Below, in pieces: positions 1 to 54,377 of a stretch of 64,000 nucleotides of DNA; the first letter of the stretch is position 1, and each line of letters begins with the position of its first letter. The notes beneath the pieces are model-generated. The model was not told the DNA's origin and ran no database searches. It worked only from the letters and a program-made list of their open reading frames with translations. Source of the DNA: Cyanidioschyzon merolae (lineage: Eukaryota); NCBI GenBank assembly GCA_000091205.1, contig AP006488.2. One strand, given 5' to 3'. The position numbers and the translations under genes were made by a program.

Positions 1-7
1 CTTGGAA

Positions 8-850
8 AGTACGCTGTCTGCCGCTTGCACGAGCGCAACCTGTTCCATTCGATAAAATTCGTGGAACGCGATGGACTCCAGTGTGAAACAAATGCCAGAA
101 CGTAAAGTCAGATTGGAGAACAAGTCGAGAAATTTTGATCCGTCCTCGTTTGCTTCGTGGAAAGCGATGACGCGCGCTCCACCGGCATCGATCGCTGAAA
201 TGATTGCATGAACAGTCCAGGACTCTTTACCCGGCAAACAGAAGACACGAGAGCGTCTCATCGTATATCCCGTGAGAGGTATCATGCGGCTGTCGAATAC
301 CGTCACGTCGACAGCCACAAACAAATGAGGAGTTGTTTTCGTACAGTATCGATTATCTTGAGAGACGATGCCAGAGTGATTTCAACAAGAGCTTGCGACG
401 CAGTCACCCAGAAACAACGTCGAATGTGGCTCCTCGTCTATCCAGAAGCGCGAATCGCCGCACCCACGAGTTGCCGTGAAACACATAGATCGAAAACTTG
501 AAGTATGCTTGTTTCGAGCATGCCATTCGAAACGGCATGGAGGATCGTCGAGCCTTGATCAAGTGAACTTCACAATCATATCGGGTATGTTACGATCCAG
601 CGTTCACGATCGTCGCAAATGGTCTCGAATCCGGAGACGTAACGAATCCCAGCGACAAAGCGTCGAAGAAGCCAATACGAAAAAGCGACCTAACCTCCAT
701 ACACTACGTATGACGACTGTTGCTCTCACCAATGCACTGAAAAGGTCGAGCCTTTATATACGAAACAAAGTTCGAAAGAAAATCGCAACCCAGGAATCGT
801 CCATCGGTCAGTGCTCCCTTTCCATCGGACACGGGGAATGACTGACCGAA
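8..850 (+). repeat. Dispersed non-coding repeat family, copy A, near full length
   Basis: It aligns by eye with 39885-40700, 30100-30650, 44870-45560, 56900-57470 and 61400-62060. Shared blocks are agta(c/t)gctgtc...gtggaacgcgatg, gagaacaagtcgagaaatt, gagaggtatcatgc(g/t)gctg, gcgcgaatc(g/c)c...gttgcc(g/t)tga, gatatcgg and gcgtcgaagaagc. ORFs 208..501 and 476..841 inside it have no domain content. Confidence 0.6.
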
Positions 851-931
851 ATCCCGGTATCTCGAGCGCAACCGCTAGGATACCCCGGGGGTTTTCGTGG
901 CGGGACCAGTGGCGGCTCTGGATCGAAGCCG

Positions 932-1651
932 GTGGTATCCATGCTGGGAAACTCGGATACGCTGGAACCCGCACTTATCCTAACTTTCGAGCGGTTTGTC
1001 GCAGAAGTTGATCTGCTGGTGAAGAGCGAGGCTACGGTGCGTGTGGTAGCACGTCTGGGCCAAGTGTTGGCTGAACTCGGTCTCTTGGTACTAGAGTACC
1101 GACGGAAGCGGGTGTTGGCATATTTTAAGGGGCAACTTCCAAGCGACGTCTATATCGGGAGCTTGGTAGAGATTACTGGGCGCGTATACACCGTGTCTCG
1201 GAGGCGGCCTGGTGCCGAACACCAGCCGAATGGTGCAACTTTTCGGGGCGCTCGTGTGCCGGTATGGGTTTTCGACGAGCGCTTCGTCGGCCTTGGTGCA
1301 GGTCCTACGGGTACCTGGCTCTCAGACGGTGACGCGACCGACAGAAAGGGAGACGCTCCCACGAGCAAGGTCATTGTGGACGTGCTGACGTTGCGGACAA
1401 TGGCGGAGGGCTTCGATATCATGGCTTGGGAAGAGGTGCTTCGCGAACGCGAGTTCTATTTACGGGAGTATTTTGCGTGTCTGGCTGCTGCCGAAACACT
1501 CACGGATCAGACGGGAAAAGCGCCTCCGGTTCAGCAGCTCTATGAGGGAGCGGTCGCCGTTGAAGCCGCGCTGAGGACGGGTCCAGCAAAAGCCGCAGAC
1601 GGCACAGAGGAGGTCGCATGCAAGAGTCTCTCTCCAACAGCGAAGAACTAG
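932..1651 (+). CDS. Hypothetical protein (orphan ORF, 239 aa)
   Basis: Long ATG-initiated ORF with GC3-biased codons. I recognise no family motif. It abuts repeat copy A. Confidence 0.3.
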   Translation: MVSMLGNSDTLEPALILTFERFVAEVDLLVKSEATVRVVARLGQVLAELGLLVLEYRRKRVLAYFKGQLPSDVYIGSLVEITGRVYTVSRRRPGAEHQPNGATFRGARVPVWVFDERFVGLGAGPTGTWLSDGDATDRKGDAPTSKVIVDVLTLRTMAEGFDIMAWEEVLREREFYLREYFACLAAAETLTDQTGKAPPVQQLYEGAVAVEAALRTGPAKAADGTEEVACKSLSPTAKN

Positions 1652-2212
1652 AATGCACTTGGCAGCGTTGTATGCGGACGTCCATGTGGTGCATGAGGCC
1701 GACTGCGGTTCGCGTTGCTCCACGCGCACCTCGATGTGGAGCGAATGAAGCCTGTCGTTTGCTGCGCCCAATGCTGATCAACACACAGTGCGGGAAGCCA
1801 GCTGCAGTTCGTAGTACTCCACAAATCGCACGGGCATTGCCGTGATCAACTTGAGCATTCACCAGAGAGATGATGGAAACGCATCCATGTGGCATGGATG
1901 ACATGCAGCAGGGCTTGGAAAATTCCCCGCCAAACCGTACGCAGATCGTGGGTACTCGGCTATGTCGCTTGCGCAACCATACACGAAGCCACACATGTGC
2001 ACTCGGCGACATCCAAGATCACTGGTTCGTAAAAATACGAGCTGTGCTGTGCCATACCAGGGCAAGGACATTCCGCATCCTGCGAACGTCAGTCTAGCTT
2101 CCCGAAAAGCGCTGAGGCAGTCCCTGTAGTGCTCGTCAGGCACGAAGCAACCGTTGCGCAGCGCTTTGCGGGCACTAAACTCGCATCCAATCGTCGAAAC
2201 GCCTCCACGCTG

Positions 2213-3286
2213 CTAGGCAGTGCCGCCAACCTGTAAACCGAAACCAAACTTGTACTGCTGTTGCCAGTGGTCAATCTCCCCTGACAAAAGGAAACTCACC
2301 CCCGGACTCAGTTTCTCTTCCAGTAACGCGGCAACTTTTCCTAGCGAGGTCACCTGCCCTATCACAGTTGCAGATCGCAAATCAAACTTGTAGCCGGCCG
2401 TGACGTACGACTCCCGACTGCGAGTGTCCCAGAAGAGCTCCGCGGCTAGAGAGACTCGCGGATTCACTCGATGAACATATGAAGCTACCACGGGCCCGAA
2501 GCTGGCAACGGTTGCCGAGAATATCCCATCCGTTGTGAGGAACCTTGCAGCTGCCGTCAATGCACTGAACTTGTTCCGTAATTGGAAAAAGCCCTCACCA
2601 CCCATGGAAAACGAGGGAACAATACTCTGCATATAAGCTAGTGAGATCACACCACCTGTCCCTAGTTTGAGGTTTGCCGAGTAATCACTTCCCCGATAGT
2701 CCAAGTCGTACATGACAGTGGTGGTGGCACTCGTCGGCGGTGGCGGTTGTATCGCAGCTCCGCCAGTAGCCGCAGCCAACATAGCCGCAGCGGCTGCCGG
2801 ATCCTCCGCTGGTTGCCGACTCACTAAAAGCTTGGATATCAGACGTGGTGTATGGGTGTAGAAGAGACGTCCGTTGAACCGGCCGGTCATGTCCATCCGC
2901 GAAACCGCGATCAACGTATTCGTGATATAGTTCACAGAAAGCGCATAACCCGGCGTTGTTTGCGTGGAGCCCATCTCTATCGAGTGCCCGGTAGAAAGCG
3001 TGGGCGTCAGCGGAAGATTCATGTCAAAGCGGGTACCATCAAACAGGTTCGGCCGCAGCACGGTGTTCGCCTCTTGGTTGATCTCCTCGTAGGCGCCCGG
3101 GTTCGGTAACTCTGTTCGTTCGATTGCCCGCCACCACCAACTCGAAGATGTGTACGGGAGCGCATCCCGTAAACCGCTTGGCAACTCTTCACGCCGGATC
3201 GTCGTATCGCGACCCGGATACGAGTCCCGTGCGTGCGTCTCTTCACCAGCACCGGTGCCGGCGGTTGTTTTAAACGTGGACGCCAT
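2213..3286 (-). CDS. TOM40: Mitochondrial outer-membrane import channel TOM40 (beta-barrel porin superfamily)
   Basis: 357 aa starting at an ATG. The N-terminal NPGAYEEI motif resembles the conserved NPG(T/F)(F/Y)E of Tom40. Alternating hydrophobic beta-strand pattern throughout. The C-terminal GEIDH...YKFGFGLQVG matches the Tom40 C-terminal DH...KFGFGL signature. Confidence 0.75.
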   Translation of the reverse strand: MASTFKTTAGTGAGEETHARDSYPGRDTTIRREELPSGLRDALPYTSSSWWWRAIERTELPNPGAYEEINQEANTVLRPNLFDGTRFDMNLPLTPTLSTGHSIEMGSTQTTPGYALSVNYITNTLIAVSRMDMTGRFNGRLFYTHTPRLISKLLVSRQPAEDPAAAAAMLAAATGGAAIQPPPPTSATTTVMYDLDYRGSDYSANLKLGTGGVISLAYMQSIVPSFSMGGEGFFQLRNKFSALTAAARFLTTDGIFSATVASFGPVVASYVHRVNPRVSLAAELFWDTRSRESYVTAGYKFDLRSATVIGQVTSLGKVAALLEEKLSPGVSFLLSGEIDHWQQQYKFGFGLQVGGTA

Positions 3287-4709: not shown

Positions 4710-5501
4710 GTGTCTCCAGCGATGCCCGGTTCCGAGGCGCGGAACCTCGCCGGACCCCCACACTCGTCGGGGCCCGAAACCCAGGTGCCCGTTGGTGCAC
4801 CAGCAAACGAGGACTCCCCCGAGCGCCACCAGGAGCCTGTCTTGAACGCCACCCAAGCAGCAGGCATTTCGTTCGGTGTGTTTGCGACGACTACGCTGAC
4901 GAGCGGGTATCTCGTTTACAGACTACGACGGCGGGAGCTGGCGTCGAGCCCAGAGTCGTCTTCGGGGCTCCAGCCGCTACCGAAAACCGTAGACGCTTGG
5001 ACCGAGCGCGGTACGTTGGTTGGCGATACCGCAGCAGTCCAAGCGGCAGCTGTACGGACAGCGTCACTTGCGCTCCTAAGCGGCACTTTGTTATGTGCGT
5101 CTTTCGGCTACATCGGTTGGCGGTTGCTGCTCTGGTACACAGGCACCAACGACCTGGAAAACTTCGCTACAGCGCTGAAGCAACCAAACAGCATGCCAAA
5201 GCGCTTGCGACGCAGCCTTGAAGAGGGGTCTCTCGGGCGTTCGCTGCGGAACTGGTATGCATCGATGACGACGGAGACTTTCGAGGATGCTGGGCGTTCA
5301 GGGATCCGGAGCATCGAACCAGCGGCGACTGGTGCTGTGGATACCGGGACGATGACCTGGCTTCAGAGGGTTGCGAACAGGGCACGTCGCTCAGGCCTCA
5401 TTCTATGGTTCCAGAAGCGAATGCACGGACCGTCGACCGAGGCGAACGGACATTCGCGTCCACCCAGAGAGACGTCTCCTTCGAACCCGACGTCTCCATG
5501 A
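4710..5501 (+). CDS. Hypothetical small membrane protein (263 aa, two predicted TM helices)
   Basis: ORF with two hydrophobic stretches, ISFGVFATTTLTSGYLVY and LALLSGTLLCASFGYIGWRLLLWY. No recognisable family. Confidence 0.3.
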   Translation: MSPAMPGSEARNLAGPPHSSGPETQVPVGAPANEDSPERHQEPVLNATQAAGISFGVFATTTLTSGYLVYRLRRRELASSPESSSGLQPLPKTVDAWTERGTLVGDTAAVQAAAVRTASLALLSGTLLCASFGYIGWRLLLWYTGTNDLENFATALKQPNSMPKRLRRSLEEGSLGRSLRNWYASMTTETFEDAGRSGIRSIEPAATGAVDTGTMTWLQRVANRARRSGLILWFQKRMHGPSTEANGHSRPPRETSPSNPTSP

Positions 5502-6399
5502 CGCCACTTTGATGTGCAAGCATGCGGAAACGGACGCCCCGCGGCCTTTGAGGTACGCTCCGGACGGTGGTATGCACCTCTCGGACGAGTGCAGATCGCC
5601 AATTCGAGCTGTTCATGCAGCGGGTCTCTCGATCCGGGGCTCTCTCATGGATATGCTCCATCTACAGCGTCATGGGCGATGGATATGTAATGGAATGTTC
5701 GTTTCATGCGAATATTCAACCGGCCTGCAATGACGATACCCGGGGGAATCATGTTGGTGTACAGAGCGCGCTGCTTGTGCCAAAGACAAACTGTCGTTAC
5801 GAATAGGCTATGATGTCGTGGCAAGGCAGCGCCTATGAGCGTTATGGACGCTCACCTATCTGCTAGCTCGCGTGCAGCTTGGCCAGCTTCCCCGGGGGGT
5901 ACCTTCGCTCATTTGCATTCGAGAGCGAGGATTTTTGCTTTAGGGCTCGCGTGACTGACATACGATGCCCACCAATCAACGGATATCGGCGTCTGGTAGA
6001 CACCGGCAGATGCAGTCGGCACCAGGTTGCAGATGCTGCAGCGCCGAGGCGCCACGGAGCATCGACCTGCAGCTGCCCTTGGTGTACGCAGTGAGGAGCA
6101 GCGACACCTATGCTGGACGCACCGAAGATGTGTCCGCGACGATACGGCACATGGGTATGCACTCAGAGACGCCTCACAGCCTTTTTTTGACAGGGCGCTT
6201 GCTATCGGTTTCGACTTCTCCTTGTATTCGTCGACCGTGGGAGATTGCTCCACAATGCTAGATCTCGTCAACTCCGGAGGTCTCGTCTTCAGCACCGCAC
6301 ATCGTCTCATATTGATGGCGGCGTGAAAGTCTCGGTTCGCGGAGTCCGTGTGTTTCCTGCCGCCGCTGGTTGAACTCACAAGAGCGAGTCGTCCTCGAA

Positions 6400-8450
6400 C
6401 TTTCGCCCTCGTTTACATTTCCTATTATATCAGAGCTCCGTACTTTTCTGTATCCTCAGGGCTCGGCTGGCACTTTTCCAACTCGACCCTCTGAATTGCA
6501 CATCCCAGCTCATGTTGCATGTGTGACGTTCGAAACGCATCTATCGCTATTGTGACGAAACAGTGTGCGCACTCTTTGTGCGCACTTGTCGACGGAGCAG
6601 GTATGCTTTCTTTTCCGGGTACCCAGCGCCCTGCTCCATACGCTACTACGAGTCTTTGACTCTTGACTTCCTCGAGGGCACTCAACGGAATGATAAAGTT
6701 GGCAAAGGCACGCTGCTTCCCACAGAGCAGATTCACACGCAGACGAGCCCACCGTGGCTTTGTATATTCTTTCCACAGCGCCTCGTCATGACCAACACGA
6801 ACTTGCATGAATTCCAGAAAAGCTTCCAAGTCCGCTCCGCGGCTCGATGCCTGGCTGATCGCTTCCAAATGCTCCTTCACTCCTGTACTCCACTTCTCAA
6901 TTTTCTTCCTTGCATTCATTATCCCTGACTCTCGCTAATATCTCGCTCGTGAGAATCTCAGAATACGTATGTCTTTTTGGCGCAAGTTGCCGTCGATACC
7001 ATCTTCTACATGCTTGGGTGCTGCGATGGTCATGATAATCATGTTCCCGGGGACCGCGCCGACGATAAAGTTGTTCTGCTGCACATCCGGGGTCGCAGGG
7101 CCCGCCTCCTTGTCTTCTTCGTGTTACGTCAAGGGCGAAGCCGAGGACAGAACAGGACGATCCGCCTTCGAGCGCCGATAGTCGACAAATATGGCTTCTC
7201 CATCAGTTTCGATCATCCCAGTGAATATCTTTTGCTTGCTCGCTTTGAGACGCTCGAAATCGAAGGTATTCTTCCAGTGCGTCTCCCGGATTTCACGGGT
7301 GAACTCCTTCTTGCTTACATCGAACTCCGGACAGATCTCCTTCATGACGCCGTAAAGGACTCTGGGATCGATTGTCACGAAGGGTGACTTGATGTTGCAT
7401 AATGGAACAACATTGGAGCACTGTTCCGGTAGGGAACCCTTCCGTTTCAACTACTCTTCATTTGCTTCCGCCAAGCAGCTCCTGTTCGGCCATGCGTTCG
7501 AGTTCTCGGTCCAAAAACACGAAATAGTGCAGGATGAGGGGATACCATCTTTTCCATCTTTTTTTTCGAATCTGATATGTTTTATGCTGGGTTGACAAGC
7601 CCCAGCACCGCAGGGTGCTTTCGAATCGCCGCATGGATCACAGAAGCTTCATTCTTTCTCGCGTGTGATGTCTTCTTGTCGACGAATTCGATCTCCTGTT
7701 CATGCTGGCGATTGTTCGTGATGCCGTCGATGACGGCCCATGTCCTCTTTGCGAGAGAGGCCCGGGTACAGCGCAGAGATAGAGCATATCATGAAGCTTT
7801 TGAGGCTCACGATCCTATGATTCTTCATGTTCGTGAGGCATTTGATTGCCCCGTAAGTATCAATATCAGTGCCACCCTGTATCTAGAACCGTTGAAGCAG
7901 CATTGGGGGTGATTTTCGTGGATGGCGTGCACTCGCTCATTTCTCCTCGGCGTTTCCCCTGTGCCAAGCATCAGGCAAGGAATAAGTGTCTAGTTGAAAA
8001 ATTCCTCCCGAATCTCGACTGTTTCCATGTGCATTATGTCGTTATACATCTCCCTCGCCATATGCATTAGTCCTAGAGAAGCGTGACAAGCACTCTTGGA
8101 GTGGGACGCGACACGGTTTCTGACTGCCTCTCGCAACTTTAGCTCATACGCATCCTTGATATGTCCAAGAAGACGGGCTTTCACCAATATCTCGCGGTAC
8201 TATCGTCTTAATTGCAGCGCTTCATTCAGGGCCTGCCTCTTTTGCTCCTTCGTCTTCTCATGCTCCTCTTTGCTTGGCACTGTTTTCCGTTTTTTTTTCC
8301 GACAGCCGGCGACATCTGCCCACTAGGACCCTCCACTACGTTTTCCGTAACACTCCTTTTTTCGTTTGAAAACGAATCCGCTTTGAACACGTCTGCTATA
8401 AACTGTGAAAAAGCACTTGAAGACCCTAATCTGAGTATGGAACGCCATTG
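6400..8450. other. AT-rich island with degenerate minus-strand ORF fragments; possible mobile-element or foreign-DNA relic
   Basis: Base composition drops sharply (runs such as ttttttttcgaatctgatatgttttatg) in an otherwise GC-rich context. Broken minus-strand ORFs 7990..8187, 7124..7450 and 6425..6919 require frameshifts to join. There is no host-gene motif. Confidence 0.35.
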
Positions 8451-9512
8451 AATTAAAAGACGATGCTACGACTTTAGCAGCGTTACATCTTGTCCGTCAG
8501 AGCAAAACGCTAACGGTCAGGATTGCGTTTCCGGTCAACTTCGAGATACGCGCCGTATCTCATGCTTGCCAGATACGGAGGTGCGCGTATCGAACGCGCT
8601 TTATCGAAAAAATAACAGATAGCAACCACTTACTAGCCAATTGGTAACATTTTCTTTCCCGCTTTACGGTAAACTCTGAACGCGGAAAACGTTTGCAGAA
8701 CTTCGGGTGTTTACCTCCCAGGAGGAAGGTCCCGCAAACCGGACGAGTCTCCCAGGCTGGTTCTTCATGATCCGTAGGGGCGGGTGCAGTCGCGCGACCC
8801 GAGCAACTCGTCCGCGCTGCAGTTTATCCTGGATTAGGAGCGGGTATGCTGCGTTTGGACGTCACCCTGGACGCGGTGGACGCCCAGTGCATCACGTTGC
8901 GCTGCGGCAATCTGTAGGTCTGTCTGCGCAGCCTGCATGCTCCCAGCATGATAATGAATCTCGACCCCGTATCGCGCAAACTACACCTCAAGCTGATGCC
9001 GTCATCGATATGGCAAAGCGATTCTGTCTCCGTGATGCGTCTGCTCAAATGGTTTAGGTGCGCTTGCTGGAGCTCAAAGCAGGTACTCAGAGCTCGATGA
9101 AACGTACAAAATAACCAGTGCATTCGAGAACAAGTCATGGAACTTGAAGGTAAGGTGCAGCAGCATGATGGACGCTTTCCCGGATACCAATATCCATCCA
9201 ACCATTCCATGATCCCGCGATCTGAGATCCAAGGTCTCAGCAAACGGTTTGTCATCGACGCTGGCCGCCAGCGCACCCTTTACGCGGTATGCGTCATCTA
9301 GGCTCATATTGGACTATATTTGTATAAAAAGGAAAATAACGAACTCTATTTCCCGAACTGCAGCGATCGTCGTACAATGCAATGCAGGCAGCGCCTTCGT
9401 CACAGCGTCTGCTCCAACTTCTCCCTCGCTGCCAGAAGTTGTGCACTTGTCCCATCTGCCCAGTCCTGTGCGCCACGTTGCATAGCTCGGGGCTTGAGTT
9501 GCCCTGAACAGC

Positions 9513-10499
9513 ATGAGCACCGGTTTACGACACTGTATCCGGGCTGTCGGGCGACTCGTGCGGACGCTCTGTACGCAGGCGGAAACTGCTGCTCGCAGTT
9601 CGGGGCCACACGTGCCGCCTCTGCGGCTGCGGCTGCCGCCGCCGAACACTGAGCCAGTGGCCGAACTGTATGGACGCTTCGTTCGACGCATCGGTGTCGT
9701 TGCGCGAAAGATCGGCATGCTACCACACTGGGACGCAAACGGTGTCTACCGTTGTGTGACGGTCCTGCACATCGATAACAACCACGTGATCCAGGTTAAA
9801 CAGCTACCGAGCAACGCGTCGAATCTGAAAGGACTCTCCGAATGGAGCGTTCAAATCGGAGCGGGATCTATGCGACCCTACCAGGCCAAAAAGCCGCATC
9901 GTTATCACTGCGCCTACGCCGGGACCGACGTCAAGGAGAAGCTGGTGGAGTTTCGGGTCGCTCCCGCTGCTGCCGCCTGCATCGAGCCGGGGACGCCCAT
10001 CACTGCGCGTCACTTTATCCCTGGCCAGTACCTGGATGTGATCGGTACGAGCATTGGCAAAGGATTTCAAGGTGCGATGAAACGCCACGGATTCGGAGGA
10101 TTACCTGCATCCCATGGCGTTTCGCTTACGCACCGCTCGCTCGGTGCGACAGGGCAACGTCAGGACCCTGGTCGAGTCTTTAAAGGCAAGCGCATGCCTG
10201 GTCGCATGGGCGGGGAGCGAACCACCGTCCAGAGTCTACGACTGGAACGCGTCGACTGCAAACGAAACTTGCTCTTCGTTTCGGGGCCGGTTCCTGGTCA
10301 TACAGGCAACTGGGTGCTGGTTCGTGATGCAGTCAAAAAAAGTGGTCTCAAGTGGTGGGCAGAGCTCCCGCACTTGCCTCCTTTTCCGACTTTTGTTGCC
10401 GATCCACAGCAGCAGGTCGAGCATGAAGCACCCGCTGATTGGTTTGCAGCACCCCGCCGCAATGTCTGGTTACAGGAGGTGCTCTCGGCCCGAGCTTAG
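9513..10499 (+). CDS. MRPL3: Mitochondrial ribosomal protein uL3 (L3)
   Basis: ATG start. Arg/Ser-rich N-terminal presequence (MSTGLRHCIRAVGRLVRTL...). Universal uL3 signature FIPGQYLDVIGTSIGKGFQGAMKRHGFGG. Confidence 0.85.
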   Translation: MSTGLRHCIRAVGRLVRTLCTQAETAARSSGPHVPPLRLRLPPPNTEPVAELYGRFVRRIGVVARKIGMLPHWDANGVYRCVTVLHIDNNHVIQVKQLPSNASNLKGLSEWSVQIGAGSMRPYQAKKPHRYHCAYAGTDVKEKLVEFRVAPAAAACIEPGTPITARHFIPGQYLDVIGTSIGKGFQGAMKRHGFGGLPASHGVSLTHRSLGATGQRQDPGRVFKGKRMPGRMGGERTTVQSLRLERVDCKRNLLFVSGPVPGHTGNWVLVRDAVKKSGLKWWAELPHLPPFPTFVADPQQQVEHEAPADWFAAPRRNVWLQEVLSARA

Positions 10500-21444: not shown

Positions 21445-23467
21445 GGGCGATCTCGTTGTGCAGCATCCGCAGCATCCGCAGCGGCGGCAGCGGCGGCGCT
21501 CACGCTGCCGGGAATTTGAATGTGATGCGCATACCGTCGCCTGCAGCGGTGCGCGCGCGCGCGCGTGCTTTTCGCAACGCTTGCTGGCGGGCGCTGGTGC
21601 GCAACGCGCCTTGCGCGGTCGATGCTCAGCGGGCGTACGGGTTGCAGGTGCTGGTGCCTCTCCCAGGGTGCACGGTATGGAGTCATGGATGGGAACGGTG
21701 GATCAGTGATTGTTTCGGGGGCAAGTCTCTCGGTTTGTAAGTGTGGTATGCTTGTTTTGATGGACTGCTGAACGGTACAAGAGCAGTAGATTGTTCCGAG
21801 TGGGGATAGCATACACGCTCTCTACAGGTTGCCGTATGACACGCATGGGAACTCTTCAGCGTTCCAGCACGATGTTTGTTAAGTGGCGTGCGGAGCGCTG
21901 ATCTAGAAATCTTGTTTGACGTAAATCCGATAGATGCTGTAGAAGATCAAACGATTGCCGGGGATGAATTGAGGCGTTCAAGTGTGGGTGCATAGAGAGT
22001 GCTTGCGTACGGGTTTGCTGGTGCAGTCACAACGTGGCGAGCTGCGGATCTTCGATTGTCTCGGCATTCGATGATGATCGCTCAGCTTAACGTACACCAT
22101 CGATTACCTTCGCTTCTGATTTTACGCTTTTCTCTCTGTGAGTTTCTGCGTGCACACGCGTGCTCGTGATGCGTGGGTGTCGCCGCTCGCGCGCATCGAC
22201 GAGCATCGACCAAAGTCGATGCCTGTGCTCCTTGGAAGCGCTCGTTTAGAGAGCGCCGCAGTGCAGCTTTTGCACGCTACTGCACGTCCAGCATCATAGA
22301 TGACCATCATCGTACCACGCGGACTGTGGGAGATTGCCAGTTCCAACCCATTGGACATGTTGCTGCATGCACAATGCCTGGCTTTTTATAAACGAAATCG
22401 CTGGCGAAACCAGCGCGATCTCCTGTACTGATGCCCAAAGCTCGTTCAACTGAGCTATTCGGGCGCTCAGGTCCTCGCCGAATAAAGCGTGCAGAGCATT
22501 CTCCCATGTGCTGGATGAGGCGCTCAGAGCGTCTCAGTGGATCCTGAACGCGCCCTAGCTCTTGTTCGTTTGCATCCTGACGAGCGTCATGCCTGCCTAT
22601 CGATACTGGCGAGCTCTGGAAAATTTGAACTGCTTCAACTGCTTTCCATTCAGGTCTTTCCGTTTGATCTCTTGAGTTCGAGGAACGGCTGGTGCCTGGA
22701 CGCCCCTCAACACCGGAACCAAGAGCACAACATATTCTTTCCCTGCATCTATCTTGACGTGTTGGAATTGAGCCGCATTCAACGACTCTGGCCCAGATTT
22801 CACGACGCGCATGCGGACCGATGTTCCATGGGTCTCTTTCGTACTTGAAAAATTCTTTCCTCTGTTGAAACGACAATTTTTGAGCGAGCTCGGCGAGTGG
22901 TCTTTCCGATTCAAGGCGGTTGCTTCAAAGCTGCTCGCAGCCGCAAGACGCAGGACTCTGAGAAAGCCATACAGGACACAACTGTTTACGGTGACGTCAT
23001 GGGCATTGGGGTGACCTATGCAGACCAGAAAAAATCGACTCATGAAGGGGCGAAGGCGCTTAGATTCAGGAAAAGGTCTGCTTTTCTCTGGAGCGCTCTG
23101 TTCAGCAAAACATGGCAGCGCACGCTTGCAGCACGTCAGGTATCAGGCGGGACACCATGCGTCCAGACTGCATCCGAATCTCCGCGGATACGGCCTGCGT
23201 TCTCAACGAAGTATGCGGTAATGTCAGGTTTTTAGTATTTCTCGGAAATTTCAAATTTTCAGACACGCGAACACGCTTCCAACGCCGCGCTGACCCATGA
23301 GAAGCGCGAAAATCGAACAATCCGTGGCACCTCTCATTCGCGTCATGCCCAGTGCACGATCTTTGCCTTCATATACAGCGTTTGGGTGCATCGCCCAGTG
23401 TCCAGCGGAATGCACCTTGCAACTTGTCCGTACAATCGAGGCGACCAGAGTCCAGACTCGGCACGCA

Positions 23468-36579: not shown

Positions 36580-38260
36580 GTTATTTCGCGCGTATACCGA
36601 CCGAAGATGATGGCAGCTTCGCCAGGTCGCCCTATTGACCAGGGATATGCTCGTTGTGTGTATCGGTTGCGGCTCCGGGAAAACGCTCACATCGTGTGGC
36701 TCTCGCGTGGAATGCGGGCGCTGGCGACTCGAAGCACGATGGTAACCGCCACGTCGAGTAGAGTGCTTTCGAGATGCGATGTTGACGCGACGACGGCGTT
36801 GTTTTAGTTCGAGCGGTACCTGGGATAGGCAGGTTGCCTCTGAACCGCTCGTTCATTCAGCAAAGATGCTGTCGACGCTCACACCGATCTGGTATGACTC
36901 GTTCCGGATGGAGTGGCGGGCATCAACGCTTATGCCGCAGGTGTTTGTCCATAGTCGCGCATACTGTGCAAGTGGACCCTCGTATCGCAAGGAGTCGCCT
37001 CGCCTAGAGGGAGAAGGCGCCTTCCAGTGGCCATTGCGGATACGGCCTTGTTTTGGATTCTCTTGCGCTGTGAGGCTGTGTTCAGGTTTTATTCGAACGC
37101 TTGTGTTCGCGTGTTTCTACTTGAAGCGGTGCTAGCGTGGCGCATCACAACCATCCTTCGATCGCCTAGTCAGAGATCTCTGACCTTTCAGTTTCGTGGT
37201 CGCGCACCAGAAACCTCTCAGCAATTACTTTTACAGGCTCCGAGTGTCAAGTGTTTTGACAGCGATTTGAGCAGGAAATTGGCTCTAACCCGTGTCGCAA
37301 GCGCACAGCATGCGTCTTTGAAAGGGCTACGTTTTCAACAAAAATGGAAATCAAGAGACTGGCAGCGCTGTGCCAGCACGCTTGCCTCGGAACCATGGTG
37401 GAGAATTTCGGTCATTTGCATCGACCAGTCGTGTATAGCGGAGATGCTGGTCACCGCAGTGTCCCTCACTCGGGCTGTACGACCCCTGGGCCGTATGTCA
37501 TGTGAGCACTCGACGAAGAAATCACCTGCGGGACGCTGTAGTACGTTTATAAGCCTGGTTCATGGAAGCACTTGTGTTCCCCGACCGCAACTCAATATCT
37601 GTTTACTGCCAGGGAGCGCAGGTAACCCACGGCAGCGGCCAAACGCATCCACGGCTTCAGCGAGCCGGCTTACGCAGAGGTCCCGCATGTCTTTCGTAAA
37701 CGGGGAAGCCCTCTATGTCGTCTGGAGCCTACCAGAGTACCCAGTTCGATGGGCAGTGCATCAGATCCCCTGAGTGCATGCCATAAACATGGGACGCTTT
37801 GTTTCGATTTCGATGGTTCACAAACAGACGAGCATGCGTATGGACGCATCCACGAGGACAGGGATCCAGTGAGGGTTCAACCTATGTCCCGTTACAGCGG
37901 GGTCGTCTGTGAACGCTGGACGCGCGCTTGCTTCCCACCTGGACAGACTTCACAGGCGTCGACGTGCCACGACCGCACCGGCGCTATAGGCGGTACCACC
38001 GACGATCAGGGCAAGCACTCGATGCACGGTAGAATGTATGAAGCGACTCGTATATCCGAGAAGAGGTATGGGCTATGGGACTCGGTGAATCGAGCGGTGC
38101 TTCACCGCGCGCTGATATCAAGCGCAGAGACAAGGAATGCTAGCCTGTGTGTCTATGATTGTCTAATTAAAGATGGAAATGGAAAGCGACGGATGCTGGT
38201 GCTGGCACACCTGCGTCGCCTCCTACGCCATGTATTTGTAGTGTTCAGTACGACGTTTCG

Positions 38261-45560: not shown

Positions 45561-48500
45561 TCAACCAGAAGGTGCAGTTGCCAATGATCAGCGGACGATT
45601 GCGCTCCGGACAGTGGCACAATCGACACCTGCACCACGTGGCCAAGTATCCGCATGTCGAAGGTGCGATTCCCAATACGTCTGCCTATGGACACTTCACC
45701 CATACTGGTCTGTGCGAACTCGAGCCCTGAGAGACCCGCACTCTGCCTATCTACATGGTCGCAACAATCGCCAAGAATAGGCTAGCGCCGCTCGTTCCAC
45801 TCAGAGCAGTGAATCCCGGAACATCTGTACCAGCAGGCGGTTTTTTGTCTAACAAAGAGAGTCTCTATGAAGGTTGGAGAATGGTCGCGGAAAGACTTTG
45901 TGTGCGCACTGCTAGCTTTGGAGAAATGGCCTCACTTGTGCAAATCAGCTATTCGTCGGTCAGCTAGTGAGTGATCCATCCCTCTGCTCGTTCATATCCC
46001 GAATGCAGTACACCAAAAACTGAACTTGCCAAACTCTAGGCCAACGACTCTTCCCTCGACAATCTATTCCAGTCCAAATGCTCGCACCGTAATGCCACCA
46101 AAGATGCAATTCCATGTAAACTTTCGGTAACGTTTCCTCGAGCGGAGCTGAAGAGACGCGGATGGATCAAGAAACAGGCACGCCTCAACAGGAGACCGCA
46201 CCATTTCGAACAATACACAACAGATTCTGTATAGAAATGCGAATACTTTTCGTGGAAGCGACGGGCGTTCATCTCGCATGATGACAAATTCATCGATGAC
46301 CAATGCGAGACTTGTATAGACGTTGCCGTAGAGGGGCAAGCCGCTGTTTGTGAAGAAGAGTCAAGCGAGCATTCCGACAACGTCAGTTCTCGCGACGATT
46401 CAATACTGTGGTCGCCCATGAATCGCAACACAGAAAGCAGCGCTCAGCACCTGATCCTCCGTTGAAACACGCCTCGAGTTCCATCTTTTCGTGTCCTTCT
46501 CCTGGGCAATATCTCTCAGTCCATCACTGATGTCGGTCGGGGGGCGGGGGCGCGGTTTGTAGCTGCTCTTCGTGCTAGCACACGCTCGCGGGTTCCATCC
46601 GCTTAAAGACGTCGTATAGGATTTCAAACGCCATTTTGATCTACCGGAAGAACAGACGAGTCGTACGTAACCGTGTTACAGAAGTTCTTCGACAAATCAC
46701 TCTTTGTGTTCACCAGAACCGAATCCATGCATTGATTCTCCGCTCATTGGCAGCTGAGAAGGGAAAGGTGCGCTCCGGTCTGGGAGCGGGCATGCGATGG
46801 CTAAGGCGACGAAAAAGCACTTGAGAAACAGTGCGTACATTCAAAGAGAAGACGAGTTTCAGGCACGTCGAGCGATCAGTGCGTCTGAGTGCCAAGAAAG
46901 AAAACGTATACAGCGTATCATGAAAAAATCCACGCTACCTAGCCGAGTAAGCGAAAAGGCAAAGATGTCGAAGCCGAAAGAGATGCAACCACACGTCAAA
47001 GCAGAGAAATAGCTTCCCTAAAAGATGACGAGTTCCGACGGGAACGGAGCACCTTCCGATCGGAAAGATCATTGTTGGACCGCTGTCAACGCCTCACCAA
47101 TAAATCATATCCATTGGGAGAATCCTTGAAGGCGTCAGGCACACGACGCCATTAGAGATCGCGTAGCTTCTTACGCGCACAAGTCTTGCCTATTTCGTCT
47201 TGTCTTGGTGCACCGCGCCACGCGACGCTTCGGTGGAGTTCCAGACACGGGCGGCAAGCTCTCGGCATTTCTCTGGATTTTTTTCGGATCAGACCTTCGT
47301 GCGAGAACACCACTTATGCTCCGGATAGAAGGCGCAACACGGCCTGTTCATAGGATTCCGGATGTACTCGCACGCTTCCCAGAATACCTTGACACATTAC
47401 CGCGCCACCTCGGCGATCTGAGGATCGACAACGCAGATGCCAGAAAGTACGGAACTACATTCAACATACCAAATTAGGTTCAGTGTCGAGCGCTTCACGA
47501 AACACCTCCCATGCGCATTGTATCCTCACGTCACATACGCGATAAAATACGGATGGATGGACGGGATGCTTAGCGGGTCGATGGAGGAAAATGACGAGCG
47601 ATTGGCGGCAAGAGATCGAGGTGGTAGCGAGTTCGGAACTGATGTGCCAGCGATAGGGAGTATCGCTTCAGGTAATCCAAGCTCGTCGTGTTGCCGTCAG
47701 CCTCGGGTCGGCGGATTTCGTACCGAAAAGGATCGTTGAGACGCAACGCCTACCTTGCTTGCATCTACGGTTCCATGTTTCGCTGAGCAGATCTTCCCAG
47801 AGCAGACCAGAGCAGATTCCATCAGACCGTCGCCTCGAATCCAAGCGCCGTAGCCTCCGAAATCGCCAAGTGGATGTGCTCCCAGCACCTCAGATGGAAG
47901 CCCAGTCGATCACCCGAGACGCTTCTGCTCTGTACTGTATCGCATCTTCAGTGAGCTACAGCTGGTCTGTCTGCGCGCAGCTATTCCGCATTCCACTATA
48001 GAGGCTAAGAGCATTGCAGAGCTCGTTCAAGGCTCCTCGTGTACGGAGAAGGAATGGAACGAATTCTACAGTGCCGATGGAGCTCGCTGGAATACAAATC
48101 CGCATGTACTTGTGAGATCGAGGCCCAAGTCAAGCGATGCGACTCGGTCTCAGCCAAAGAAGACATATCAAGAGAGAAACATCATGGTGGGCCCGGATCC
48201 CCAGGTCTGAGAATATCATGACGGTTGTCGTACCTCTGAATCGAGAGAACGTATCGAGGGATATGCAGGGAATGCAAACGAAGCTACTCAGCTTTTCCCG
48301 GGCTCGATTTCACCCAGGAATGGGCATGATGAATGCGAGAAGGCACACGAAAACTGGAAAGACGGCGTCAGGGACCAGACCCCGGTGCTCTGAGCACACT
48401 GTCCTGCAGACGAGGATGCTTTGTGTGCTGCATTCAGAGAGAACACGAGCGTCCAAATGGCGTATGTCGACGATCTCTGGCAGAAATACCTGCGGACGCA

Positions 48501-50076
48501 CGGGAATGGCCAACGATTTTCGGCGTACAGGGGCAGGACGCGAGTATTCAGCGACTTGTTTCATGAACAGGAAAAGAAATACGACGGATCGTTCGTCTCG
48601 TTGGGTGACGGTACCCTATGGCGCAAGACGTGCTGTGGCGCTCGTGGGCTGCACGCCTGCTCCTCTGACGAGAACGTAGAACGAGTGCAGGAAACGATTC
48701 TGTACGACGCCTGTCGATGAGTTACGGCCAACAGAGAAACGTCACGAGCACGAGTGCCCGTTGAAACAGCCAGAAACGAAGCGCTTGAAACAGAGCACGA
48801 TGGACGAGATGGGGTACGGCATGCCGAGCGGACGTCTGCTTACGAGGCAGTCAGATGCATGAGGCTCGCAATGTTGCGATACAGTCGCCAACAAGGTATG
48901 CAAGCGCTTTCTGTGCCAAGACTTGGACGCCTCAATCAACACCCGAAAAAGTCGAGTGCTTTCGGAGCGTCCTGCGGCTCTGTGTCAAGCGAAAATTCCT
49001 GGTAATCGTTTCGTATTCTTTGTCGGCATTGCGCTGAAATGCTGAAGACTCCGGATTGAAAAAACTCAGTGGCCAGGAGAGATGGCATTAGATTCTCGCC
49101 CGGAGCGAGGCACTGTTGTGGTCGAGCGCATCCATCGAGCGAGGTAGCAGCGTCGTATGTGTATACTGCGAACGTTTTACCTCGGCAGTGATGTCATGAT
49201 CATGGTGTTCCATTATTCGGCGTTACCAAGCATATGCGTCTCTTTACAGAGTCGTGAAATCCAATCCCTTGATCCTACTCCCAGCGGGACTTGCATGCCT
49301 AGTGGTCGGTTCGAAAACAGTCTCCCATGTCTCTTTGCGATCATGTCACAAGGATGAACCAATCTATGTGCAGGCGTTCATTCCGAAAGCAACAGTGTCG
49401 GTCCTTAGACGAATTTTCGAATCCGGTCGCCTCGTCCGATACAGCGCTGCGTATGCGCGACGATATTGATATCAGTGTTTGCATAAGAAAATCATATCAT
49501 TTCCACCACTTCCGGTTCAGGTATAAAACGTCGGTATGAGGAATCTGGTGCCCATCATCGCAAATGGTCGCGTAACGAGTTCCCGCCGACGACCTGAGGC
49601 ACAGTGCACGGGCCATGCTCCATCGGTGTCGCGTATTGCACCAGTTACGAGCACGAGAAAGCACTATCCTTCCATGACATGGTGGCAGTGCGCATGTGCC
49701 CGGGTCTGTTCTGACGCTTTCAGGGTCGCAACAGGAACGCAAGGCCCCGTCCCGTAATCCACCGACCGCAAAGCTGCCTTTGTTCCATAGTGGGAGCCTT
49801 ACAGGATCCAGTGCGTCCTGTCCGTGCCTCGGGGATATCTTGGAGCCGGACGGATCGGCCGTACCCGCAAGCGTCACAAAGCCAGCACGGAAACTGTACG
49901 AGGAATCCCATAGATTCTGCACCAGACCCGACACACTGGCATGAATCCGCTGACAGCATCAGTGTTCCCGAACAGCACAACAACGATCCGTTGGGTATTG
50001 TGTACCTCGACTGCACGGTTCACCTTGCAGCGAGCTCGCGCGTTTGTACCGAGTGTCTATCCGCTCGTCCCGCATC

Positions 50077-51864: not shown

Positions 51865-54377
51865 GAGCACGACTGTCACAATGTACTACTTTGAAGTGCT
51901 CCCCAATCCAGCCACTTTAGCCGTGCTATGTGCACTCCCAGGATCCGGGATCGTCTAAAGTGGACCGAATGCCCCTTGACGAAATATCCTGCACCCAAAA
52001 CTCTGCTCTGCGGTGCTGCGCAAATGTCAGCCGCAGAGGCTACGAGCAGGAAACTCGCTCCATCATCGCCGCCGCTGGTACGCAGGATCGACTCAGATTC
52101 GTCGATCAGTTCAACGGTTGCTTTCTGATCGCGGCGGCGGCGGGCGCACGAGCGGTCTACGTGCAACGCTGCGATCAGCGAGATGTGACGATGCGGTGCT
52201 GCAGCGCGTCACATCTGCTGCAGCATGCGCATCACCGGAGGACGCTGGCCTACGGAAACGTTTTGTCCATGAAAAAGATCTGCTGCTGCATCGGATTGCA
52301 GCAGCTATTGTCTTTCACCAGGATTCTGTTCCACATCCAGTAGCGTGGCATCAAATGCTTTTCCGCGGTTCATAGCAGATATGTTCGAAGTGTGTTTATT
52401 TGGAGAAACAAAAGATCCATGGCACAGGAATAGACGTGGATGTCGGGCATCCTGGAGCGCTGTCATCGATGATCGCCAGAATGAAACGGAAAAACCCTCT
52501 TTTCGCCGACTATGGAGCGAAGGAGAGGAAGAGCAACAAGGGGAGATGCACGAGAAGCGGTGCTTGCACAGCGGGACGGTGACTAAACTGTAGAGGCACA
52601 GAGCGCACGAGTTCAAGGAATCCTTGCATTGGTGCGTTCAACAGTGGCAAAAGACGCATGGAGTTCATCAACCGAGACTGTAACGCCGCTGTGAATATCA
52701 TACAATGAGTGGCGTTGTAGACGAGACCCGAGGAGCTAGCGAAATCTAATTTTATTCGGCAAACTCTCAGGCTCGAGAGGTGCCTTGATAAACTGAAACC
52801 GAAAGCAGGCGGTCGGTCGAAAAAGTTGGGAGACGCCTGCGTATGGGTATTCATTTACCCACCATGGTTGTGGGATATTTTTCGTTCTATCAACGATGTC
52901 TTTCTCGTCGATGGACCATGGGCAAGCGTGTTTAGCTCATCTGGAGGTTCGCGGTTGCACAGGCCCGACCGGAGCCCGAGTTAGGGGGCCTCTTCTCGCT
53001 GGCGGACACGTCTACATAGCACCCGACGAGCAACGTCTAGCGGATGAGAGTCGTTGCCTTTTGGTAGCGCACAGCGAGCGATAAGCAGAGGAAGGTGCCA
53101 GTTTTACGCATGGACCTGAAACGGTGCTCGCGCAATGCTCGGAAAAGCCTCACAGAATATCGGCAAGTGTTCGTTCGTTCATTCAGCGTTTGGAATTGAT
53201 GAGGCTCTGGATACCTGTGTCTCCCAGTGGTTTCCAGAGAGTCGGGGCATGTGTTGTGTTCTTTCCCAGCCGTGTCTTCATCCTCGCGGATTCTGCCGAG
53301 GGGCGCGCTTCACGTCGGAGCGCGGTAGCTTCCGCGCCATCCCGGGCAACACGGAATTCGTTCTGCTGCTGTGGTGCATTCGCCGCTGGAGTGTCGACCT
53401 GTTCGGCACTGTGTTTCTTTCGTGCCGCTCTGTCTCGAAACGCTGTGTCCTGTGCGAGTCGGCAGCCTCCATCGACGGAATGTTGAGGTCGACTCTCGAG
53501 CGACGCTTCACGCACGGTCGTGCACTTGAAAAAACACTTCATTAACGTTCGGCGAAGCATCATGCTCGCATGCAACTCGTGAATAACATTTTGCCAACGA
53601 GAAATATCTCAGCGGTTTGCCGAAAGTATTTCTCATTTCGAAACGCGGTGGAATTGAGTGCTGCAGCCAGCCATATTGAAGCGCTGTAATGGGAACGCGC
53701 TTTCAGAGGCACGTGCACGGGCAAGAGAGCCTCTTCGGTGCTCTACTTCTGGTCGAGCACCAAGAGCACGACACTTGAGCGATGTGACGGCGGACGGATG
53801 ACACCCGTTGCATCCGGCCACGGTAACGCTACTGGATAAAAGTAGTGGCATGATGTAGACAGAATATGGAATTACAGCATACCCACCGCCATAGTGAGAT
53901 GCGGGACGCTTAGTACGGAAAAGTTACGCATGTACTACTTCCTGTGCCACAAGCAGACTTTCTGTCAAGGTACGAAACGCTGCGTACCTACATCTTTCTC
54001 CTGGACGCGGCGAACGAGGTATCTGCAGATGCGAGCGCACGCACTTCCATTGCAGCCAGCACATTATCGTCCATATTTGCGCGATCTATCCAAAATGAAG
54101 GCAATCTTCGCTGTCGCGTGTCTGTACTGAGAGGCAAAGAGCAAAGCCCAATTCCTAGGCGAGCACGCTTCTGGTATTTATGACGGCGACGGCAATCGTT
54201 TTGCAGAGATACCGACTTACGCGGGGGTATATCCGACGCCGCGGGGAATGGTTTAGACGAAATCGCGTGTACAGCAGAAACGTATCGATATCCTGGACCA
54301 CAGGCATTTGGGTGTGACAGCTGCTGCTGCTGCCGAGTCCAAAACGCCGCTATGTTGCAGTGAGGCTCCCAGCCACC

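Follow-up and report, generated by a model that had tools for sequence, protein, structure and literature searches.

Fanzor1 proteins are eukaryotic relatives of bacterial TnpB. They have been shown experimentally to be omega-RNA-guided DNA endonucleases, the omega RNA being transcribed from the right end of the transposon, and may promote the retention or spread of elements that lack a transposase (PMC10432273, PMC10530073). The Fanzor1 family of Cyanidioschyzon merolae, CMe-1A, comprises about 150 copies that are about 80% identical to a consensus of about 3 kb, some of them still intact; the element of 3169 bp encodes a protein of 734 aa (supplementary table), lacks terminal inverted repeats (TIRs) and has no determinable target-site duplications (TSDs), and its 5' 635 bp correspond to a separate repeat, TE-N2_CMe (Bao & Jurka 2013, Mob DNA 4:12, PMC3627910). 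An interspersed repeat of C. merolae had been reported before, with 253 copies of 3.2 kb on average that make up about 5% of the genome, are transcribed and carry a truncated open reading frame (ORF) weakly similar to wsv486 of white spot syndrome virus (WSSV) (Nozaki et al. 2007, BMC Biol 5:28). Judging from their shared size, species and WSSV link the two repeats are probably the same. The subject here is a stretch of 64,000 nucleotides of C. merolae (contig AP006488.2 of assembly GCA_000091205.1), referred to as the window, in which an initial annotation had flagged positions 6400-8450 as an AT-rich island with frameshifted ORF fragments, possibly the relic of a mobile element or of foreign DNA. 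With a probability of about 0.95 this segment is the inner part of a CMe-1A copy that is dead and fixed, CMe-1A being a DNA repeat dispersed through the genome of this species.

A CMe-1A copy next to the mitochondrial L3 gene

The CMe-1A consensus, taken from Additional file 2 of PMC3627910, gives a single blastn match in the window, in which consensus positions 1-3082 align to 9257..6167 on the minus strand at 79.8% identity over 3111 columns. nhmmer extends this match to consensus position 3118, at 6127 in the window, with an envelope that reaches 6104 and a bit score of 2109. As the consensus aligns from 9257 to about 6127, the flagged 2 kb are the interior of a near full-length copy, and the feature is longer than originally proposed, extending from 9257 down to about 6104-6127 or possibly about 6050. 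The suggestion of a decayed mobile element was thereby borne out, in the form of a heavily mutated CMe-1A copy that has diverged from the consensus about as far as family members usually do. The relic also has the layout of the published element, with a TE-N2_CMe-like 5' part of 635 bp followed by a leader and the 734-aa ORF, and like it has no TIRs. Unlike the intact copies, it no longer codes for a protein and is degenerate at its extreme 3' end. When the translation of 7450-6150 is conceptually repaired, it matches 156 metagenomic proteins at 55-65% identity (best E 4e-167), while scans of the individual ORF fragments against Pfam and NCBIfam returned noise only. CMe-1A is multi-copy in the material at hand, with four further relics in the window and 71 loci in environmental Cyanidioschyzon contigs; the genome-wide figure of 150-253 copies comes from the literature only. 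The relic is thus a routine dead copy of a repeat that is already known from a description of 2007 and was assigned to Fanzor1 in 2013.

The 5' end of the copy is sharp, position 9257 being equivalent to consensus position 1, and consensus 1-905 on its own aligns to the relic at 75.5% identity. In an alignment of 31 distinct 5' ends, the stretch from about consensus position 645 onward is common to every copy examined. At the 3' end a degenerate terminal ...GGCG may be present near 6050, and the element may end anywhere between 6050 and 6127. The initial annotation had proposed a search for flanking repeats, and a repeat search of 5500-9600 revealed no TIRs, long terminal repeats (LTRs) or TSDs, as published for CMe-1A (PMC3627910); the only inverted pairs are two short ones of 14 nt, neither of which lies at the ends of the element. 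A direct pair at 5914/9119 suggested a second TE-N2 copy downstream, which was rejected because its Smith-Waterman scores are at the level of shuffled sequence.

The locus recurs, together with the relic and its ORF fragments of 164 aa and 156 aa, in six environmental contigs from JGI and ENA metagenomes, whose identity to the window over the relic is 99.3% or higher. Divergence between strains amounts to 0.3-0.7% in the relic, 0.3-1.7% in intergenic DNA and 0.05-0.5% in coding sequence, which places the relic nearer to the intergenic values. The six contigs come from strains of the same species, and their main value is to demonstrate a fixed copy that evolves at approximately the intergenic rate. 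In Cyanidiococcus yangmingshanensis (L008, VWRR01000001.1, 2199-6694) the gene order Tom40, CMF063C homologue, mitochondrial ribosomal protein L3 (mt-L3), GidA, OGDH and Cnd2 is conserved; no CMe-1 match was found in the 23-kb syntenic locus, and the interval is about 2.8 kb shorter. The insertion therefore postdates the split from Cyanidiococcus. Comparison with related strains, likewise put forward in the initial annotation, thus places the relic in six near-identical environmental strains and finds it missing from the syntenic site of a sister genus.

A locus whose protein gene is dead may still be in use, either as a 'ghost' omega-RNA locus or as a transcribed regulatory or other non-coding RNA near the mt-L3 promoter. 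CMe-1A-like repeats have been reported to be transcribed (Nozaki et al. 2007), loci that keep the omega RNA in the absence of the protein have been described (Saito 2023, PMC10432273), and the 5' end of the element lies just 255 bp from the L3 start codon (9257 versus 9513). In addition, a degenerate GCTGC...GCAGC hairpin that resembles the subterminal hairpin of the family can still be made out at about 6072-6102, as read by eye against other copies. However, the terminal hairpin that is present in 31 of 35 other copies is not recognisable in the relic, the relic diverges between strains at the level of intergenic DNA, and Rfam and tRNA scans of the window gave no matches. Continued use of the locus is very improbable, although it is the least improbable of the alternatives to a plain dead copy of CMe-1A.

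Decay of the reading frame and base composition

In a codon-by-codon alignment with the consensus ORF, 484 of 725 codons of the relic are identical (67%). The start codon at 8348 has changed from ATG to ACG, nine stops interrupt the frame (at 8202, 7992, 7584, 7453, 7126, 6937, 6427, 6424 and 6415) and eight indel events have occurred (at 8300, 8090, 8087, 7878, 7747, 7554, 7471 and 6190), seven of which fall within 8300-7471. The catalytic triad is no longer intact, as two of its three residues are lost and only the last Asp is kept (Table 1); the Asp and the Glu that are lost are invariant in an alignment of 25 sequences of the family. The relic is a pseudogene, thoroughly dead, and cannot make the protein. 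The three minus-strand ORFs on which the initial annotation had relied (7990..8187, 7124..7450 and 6425..6919) are present at exactly these coordinates and with the peptides it quoted. Its further claim that they can be joined only by frameshifts is wrong for two of the three: ORFs 7124..7450, 6935..7084, 6425..6919 and 5909..6379 share one reading frame and are split by in-frame TAA or TAG codons only. True frameshifts are confined to the part further upstream (7471-8300) and to 6190.

Positions 6400-8450 have a GC content of 49.8%. The value for the whole window is 55.0%, rising to 57.1% in 13 large host ORFs and falling to 53.7% outside them. Segments of 2051 bp across the window have a mean GC content of 55.0% with a standard deviation (SD) of 2.4, and 1.2% of them are as low as 6400-8450. 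The lowest value of all, 49.2%, belongs to the segment starting at 6651. The dip is thus a real one, and nowhere in the window is there a deeper one. The marked fall described in the initial annotation is accordingly genuine but modest in size, at about 5 points or about 2 SD. The surroundings are not uniformly GC-rich, as had been stated, since a comparable dip occurs at 44.8-47.2 kb and milder ones at about 39-42 and 60-63 kb. The homopolymer T runs that had been noted are real, and three of the five T runs of at least seven bases in the window lie inside the element (6182, 7559 and 8290).

The CMe-1A consensus is itself only 52.3% GC and the relic 50.8%. Substitutions away from the consensus comprise 246 GC-to-AT and 204 AT-to-GC changes, a net loss of about 1.5 points. 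The low GC content is therefore mostly an inherited composition (52% compared to 57% in host coding sequence) to which a mild drift has been added. Directed mutation of repeats, by a process resembling repeat-induced point mutation (RIP) or by deamination of methylated CpG, would instead attribute the low GC content to decay. Such a process is hinted at by an excess of G-to-A and C-to-T transitions over A-to-G and T-to-C (175 versus 143) and by the fact that all nine stops are TAA or TAG. But the excess is small, the net drift is slight, and about three quarters of the GC deficit relative to the window mean are already present in the consensus. Furthermore, only one of the nine stops can be derived by a simple C-to-T change (CAG to TAG), the other eight requiring transversions (GAA, GAG or AAG to TAA/TAG; TCG to TAG; TAC to TAG). 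Directed mutation as the source of the low GC content is hence not supported and very improbable.

The initial annotation had also considered a foreign or viral segment, that is, a horizontally acquired or integrated fragment of a giant-virus-like or WSSV-like virus in place of a resident transposon copy. The weak similarity of the repeat ORF to WSSV wsv486 (Nozaki et al. 2007, BMC Biol 5:28), the occurrence of Fanzor1 genes in large double-stranded DNA viruses, for which viral spread has been proposed (Bao & Jurka, PMC3627910), and a GC content below that of host genes all speak for such an origin. On the other hand, the segment aligns from end to end with the consensus of a dispersed host repeat, four further relics lie within the same 64 kb, and the 71 environmental loci are embedded among host genes. 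No viral genes flank the copy, its neighbours being CMF063C and mt-L3. A viral origin is consequently superfluous for the copy at 6104..9257 and highly improbable; an ancient viral origin of the CMe-1A family is possible but irrelevant to this copy. Least tenable of all, to the point of being negligible, is an ordinary host gene with AT-rich introns or a gene recoded by stop-codon readthrough or programmed frameshifts: 7450-5909 does stay in one frame despite its stops, but the nine stops and eight indel events fall where intact relatives carry sense codons and not introns, two invariant catalytic residues have disappeared along with the start codon, the homologues all belong to the repeat family, and the repaired translation matches this family only, so that the host gene with introns that the initial annotation had named as its own refutation does not hold. 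Stop-codon reassignment was ruled out, as the neighbouring host ORFs use the standard code and are uninterrupted.

Relationship of the family to Fanzor1

A profile built from 16 homologues of the CMe-1A protein recovers 1479 representative proteins at E<=1e-3 from a library of 1.84 billion sequences, many of them 600-740 aa long. The members of the 25-sequence alignment share 28-77% identity with the reference, and all of them have the Asp of DPG, the Glu of DEFRT[ST] and, within RD-NAA-NI, the Arg-Asp, Asn and Ala. Intact members contain the motif D-X(125,275)-[TS][TS]-...-RD, with (in consensus residues) Asp431 in GADPGN, the TS at 606-607 in DEFRTS and Asp672 in NRDFNAA. In Fanzor1 enzymes, too, the only RuvC domain carries an Asp / Glu / Asp triad whose Glu is part of a DE[FY]xT[ST] motif. 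From motif reading, the canonical RuvC-II Glu site would be occupied by the Gly of VVAYGAGRW and a conserved Glu would lie about 35 residues downstream in DEFRTS, an arrangement that fits the 'rearranged' Fanzor catalytic site of Jiang et al. 2023 (PMC10530073).

The profile search also reaches proteins of 778-812 aa (E ~1e-99 to 1e-70) with a precomputed match to Pfam PF07282, the Cas12f1-like TNB domain, whereas closer relatives at the 50%-cluster level have only sub-threshold PF07282 matches (E 0.002-0.07). The distant relatives that bear PF07282 display a zinc ribbon of the form DEFRTSQMCHAC...CCSTGC...DRDHNAALNI, and P0384 and P0385 among them keep the CxxC...CxxxC pattern (CHAC...CCSTGC), unlike P0013, P0381 and the other proteins of the CMe-1 clade. 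A distant RuvC / TNB core is shared with bacterial TnpB (IS200/IS605, IS607) and Cas12f, systems in which the guide RNA comes from the right end of the element. In contrast to these systems CMe-1A has no TnpA partner, resides in a eukaryotic host and encodes a much longer protein with a large helical N-terminal half. A search of PDB sequences with the profile of the CMe-1 family gave no TnpB or Cas12f match, the sole match being Angiogenin at E 0.15, which is attributable to chance.

An AlphaFold2 model of an intact metagenomic homologue of 752 aa (P0381) has a mean pLDDT of 59.5 and a pTM of 0.39, with the RuvC half better resolved. When this model was compared to the PDB with Foldseek, the best seven matches were all Fanzor1 structures, with E-values from 1.6e-10 to 1.1e-6 and a probability of 1.00. 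They comprise SpuFz (9CEZ, 9CEY, 9CEU and 8GKH, E 1.6e-10 to 5.8e-10; the solved SpuFz1 structures are 8GKH and 9CEU-9CEZ), PpFz (9CF1 and 9CF0) and GtFz (9CER), and are followed in the ranking by Cas12o, CasPhi and Fanzor2. The likeness is one of structure, sequence identity to the Fanzor1 structures being just 11-14%. The CMe-1 proteins also differ from these enzymes in having an extra, variable acidic repeat ahead of RuvC-I. CMe-1A further resembles the Fanzor1 Spu-1 elements in that it does not encode a transposase of its own.

An intact element is about 3.2 kb long without TIRs and consists of a non-coding 5' part (about 900 bp in the CMe-1A subfamily), one intron-less ORF encoding Fanzor1 with its 734 aa and, behind the stop codon, 59 bp of non-coding tail closed by a hairpin. 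By homology with the characterised Fanzor1 enzymes, the RNA-guided nuclease activity of the intact relatives, the location of their omega RNA and their mode of mobility can be pictured as follows. The protein would be an omega-RNA-guided DNA endonuclease with a single RuvC domain, and its guide RNA would be transcribed from the 3' (right) end of the element. With no transposase encoded, the nuclease may favour the retention or spread of the element instead of acting as a transposase. The present copy entered the interval between CMF063C and mt-L3 once Cyanidiococcus had split off and has since decayed at roughly the intergenic rate.

Several observations weigh against the identification of the segment as a decayed CMe-1A copy of Fanzor1 type, or against parts of it. 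The relic has no confidently recognisable counterpart to the last ~50 bp of the consensus, terminal hairpin included, and for this reason its 3' boundary is uncertain. No TSD can be defined for the relic, as is likewise the case in PMC3627910. The empty site cannot be aligned at the nucleotide level in the intergenic DNA of Cyanidiococcus, where only coding segments align, because the only genome without the element is too diverged. The dN/dS ratio relative to the consensus is 0.42 in an indel-free stretch; part of the 20% divergence therefore arose while the lineage was still coding, before the death of the copy, and the divergence is thus not a clean estimate of its age. As to the protein family, a Pfam scan of six full-length CMe-1-like homologues gave no match at E<=0.1, either to the TnpB / Cas12f models PF07282 and PF01385 or to any other, and the only precomputed tag on CMe-1-like proteins is a weak match to DUF8286. 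The C4 zinc finger that the published Fanzor motif places between TS and RD has lost its cysteines in the CMe-1 clade, which reads TSYTHHELGC...KC...VRGLLALVSTT without CxxC pairs. Finally, the P0381 model is of mediocre confidence and its TM-scores are low (~0.3), though the matches are specific.

Other copies, neighbouring genes and the wider family

The further CMe-1A-related relics of the window are listed in Table 1 together with the parts of the copy at 6104..9257 and the genes around it. The relic at 47043-49038 shares 25-30% amino-acid identity with CMe-1-like proteins and is located in a 6-kb un-annotated gap between BAM79458 and BAM79459, beside the low-GC patch at 44.8-47.2 kb. That at 52266-52863 retains leader and tail, but the gene is gone and the junction is almost direct. 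The weak relic at 21945-23033 accounts for the Cnd2-GH63 interval being about 1.5 kb longer than in Cyanidiococcus (2.2 versus 0.7 kb).

Table 1 Positions in the window of the CMe-1A copy and its parts, of related relics and of neighbouring genes
Feature	Position	Strand	Basis or remark
Whole decayed CMe-1A copy	6104..9257	-	blastn and nhmmer against the consensus
5' module, TE-N2_CMe-like	8611..9257	-	Consensus 1-635; pairwise alignment; PMC3627910
Conserved non-coding leader of the core element	8349..8610	-	Consensus ~636-905; alignment of 31 distinct 5' ends
Fanzor1 pseudogene	6140..8348	-	Consensus 906-3110, collinear with the 734-aa ORF; tblastn and hidden Markov model (HMM) matches
Acidic repeat (~25 aa), single unit	7054..7133	-	Consensus 2117-2196, immediately before RuvC-I
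RuvC-I motif	7043..7060	-	GADPGN to GAVPGN, catalytic Asp to Val
Glu-bearing motif	6524..6544	-	VDEFRTS to IDAFRTS, Glu to Ala
RuvC-III motif	6317..6337	-	NRDFNAA to NRDFHAA, Asp kept
Older, much diverged near full-length relic	47043-49038	+	Consensus 1071-3016, nhmmer E 4e-26; protein HMM E 8.5e-26
Internally deleted CMe-1A derivative, ~0.6 kb	52266-52863	+	Consensus 777-1019 joined to 2834-3087, nhmmer E 5e-15 and 4e-23
TE-N2_CMe-like fragment	37938-38156	-	Consensus 36-215, E 2e-13
Weak ORF-derived relic	21945-23033	-	Consensus 1865-2936, E 8e-10; protein HMM E 1e-9
Tom40 (BAM79444)	2213..3286	-	
CMF063C, hypothetical protein (BAM79445)	4722..5501	+	
Mitochondrial ribosomal protein L3 (BAM79446)	9513..10499	+	

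Annotated proteins of C. merolae 10D match ten large ORFs of the window exactly; all ten are encoded on a single contig of 536,163 bp, chromosome 6, under CMF locus tags. CMF063C is the sole annotated gene between Tom40 and mt-L3, and the 4 kb at 5502-9512 that contain the relic are un-annotated in the NCBI reference record; the ORF fragments of the relic are called only by automatic metagenome gene callers. The CMF063C homologue of Cyanidiococcus is called as 164 aa, compared to 259 aa in C. merolae. Elsewhere in the window, at 57757-60540 (+), lies the gene for an ORP150-like Hsp70 (BAM79461), and some IMG entries in the 90% cluster of this protein are named 'transposase-like protein', which looks like an artefact of the source annotation rather than a feature of the sequence.

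In the 71 metagenomic loci (L009-L079) the similarity among all copies begins near consensus position 645. Upstream of this point each copy carries one of at least four unrelated 5' modules, of which TE-N2_CMe is one; most metagenomic copies have other 5' modules in its place. TE-N2_CMe is inverted in some cases and in others (such as L026 and L039) lies beyond the 3' end of a copy, at a distance of about 56 bp. Given these variable modules, the published 'CMe-1A' looks like a core of about 2.5 kb combined with a separable module. Variation is also seen within the gene, where a 75-80-bp tandem unit (consensus 2117-2196) encodes about 25 acidic residues of the type KHEEKKEADPATQEVQENDFVVGA directly before the RuvC-I Asp; copies contain 1 to 5 such units (e.g. 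L017 4198-4499), and the window copy contains one.

At the right end (consensus 3140-3169), 31 of 35 distinct copies (L009-L078) terminate in a hairpin of 6 bp or more. It occurs in two versions or registers, CGUUUUUC/GAAAGGCG with G-U pairs and CGUCGUUCGA/UCGAACGGCG. Beyond the element, 31-32 of the 35 copies have TT as their first two flanking bases, and a G/T-rich, A-poor stretch comes next. RNAalifold found no consensus structure in 36 right ends, the hairpin being present in two registers and the alignment containing indels, and folding of the right ends one by one gave weak z-scores (mean -0.5). As a lead, the hairpin may represent the end of the omega-RNA scaffold and the TT a target preference.

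Intact genes for 752-aa proteins are present in wild populations (P0381, from a cluster of 22 sequences). Together with the features above this raises the tentative idea, in itself rather doubtful, that the CMe-1 family is a distinct and still active Fanzor1 lineage of a thermoacidophilic alga, one that has dispensed with the zinc-ribbon cysteines and consists of a mobile core of about 2.5 kb (~645-3169) with alternative 5' modules.

For the locus itself, the compositional anomaly comes down to an ordinary repeat copy of a kind that had already been catalogued. In the compact genome of C. merolae, un-annotated stretches several kb long can be CMe-1A relics, as in the gap that holds 6104..9257 and in that at 44-50 kb. 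The species is frequently described as nearly free of transposons. The dispersed repeat to which about 5% of its genome has been attributed belongs to the Fanzor1 family of RNA-guided nucleases, known since 2013 and little exploited. The side observations on 5' modules, on the hairpin with its TT, on the missing zinc ribbon and on intact genes of wild populations may serve as a guide for tests of a Fanzor from a thermoacidophilic host, and leave the verdict on the present locus unchanged. If the lineage is indeed active, it would represent a Fanzor adapted to a hot-spring host, its heat tolerance being a guess, and C. merolae would provide a tractable host with a complete genome in which the benefit of Fanzor to its elements could be tested.

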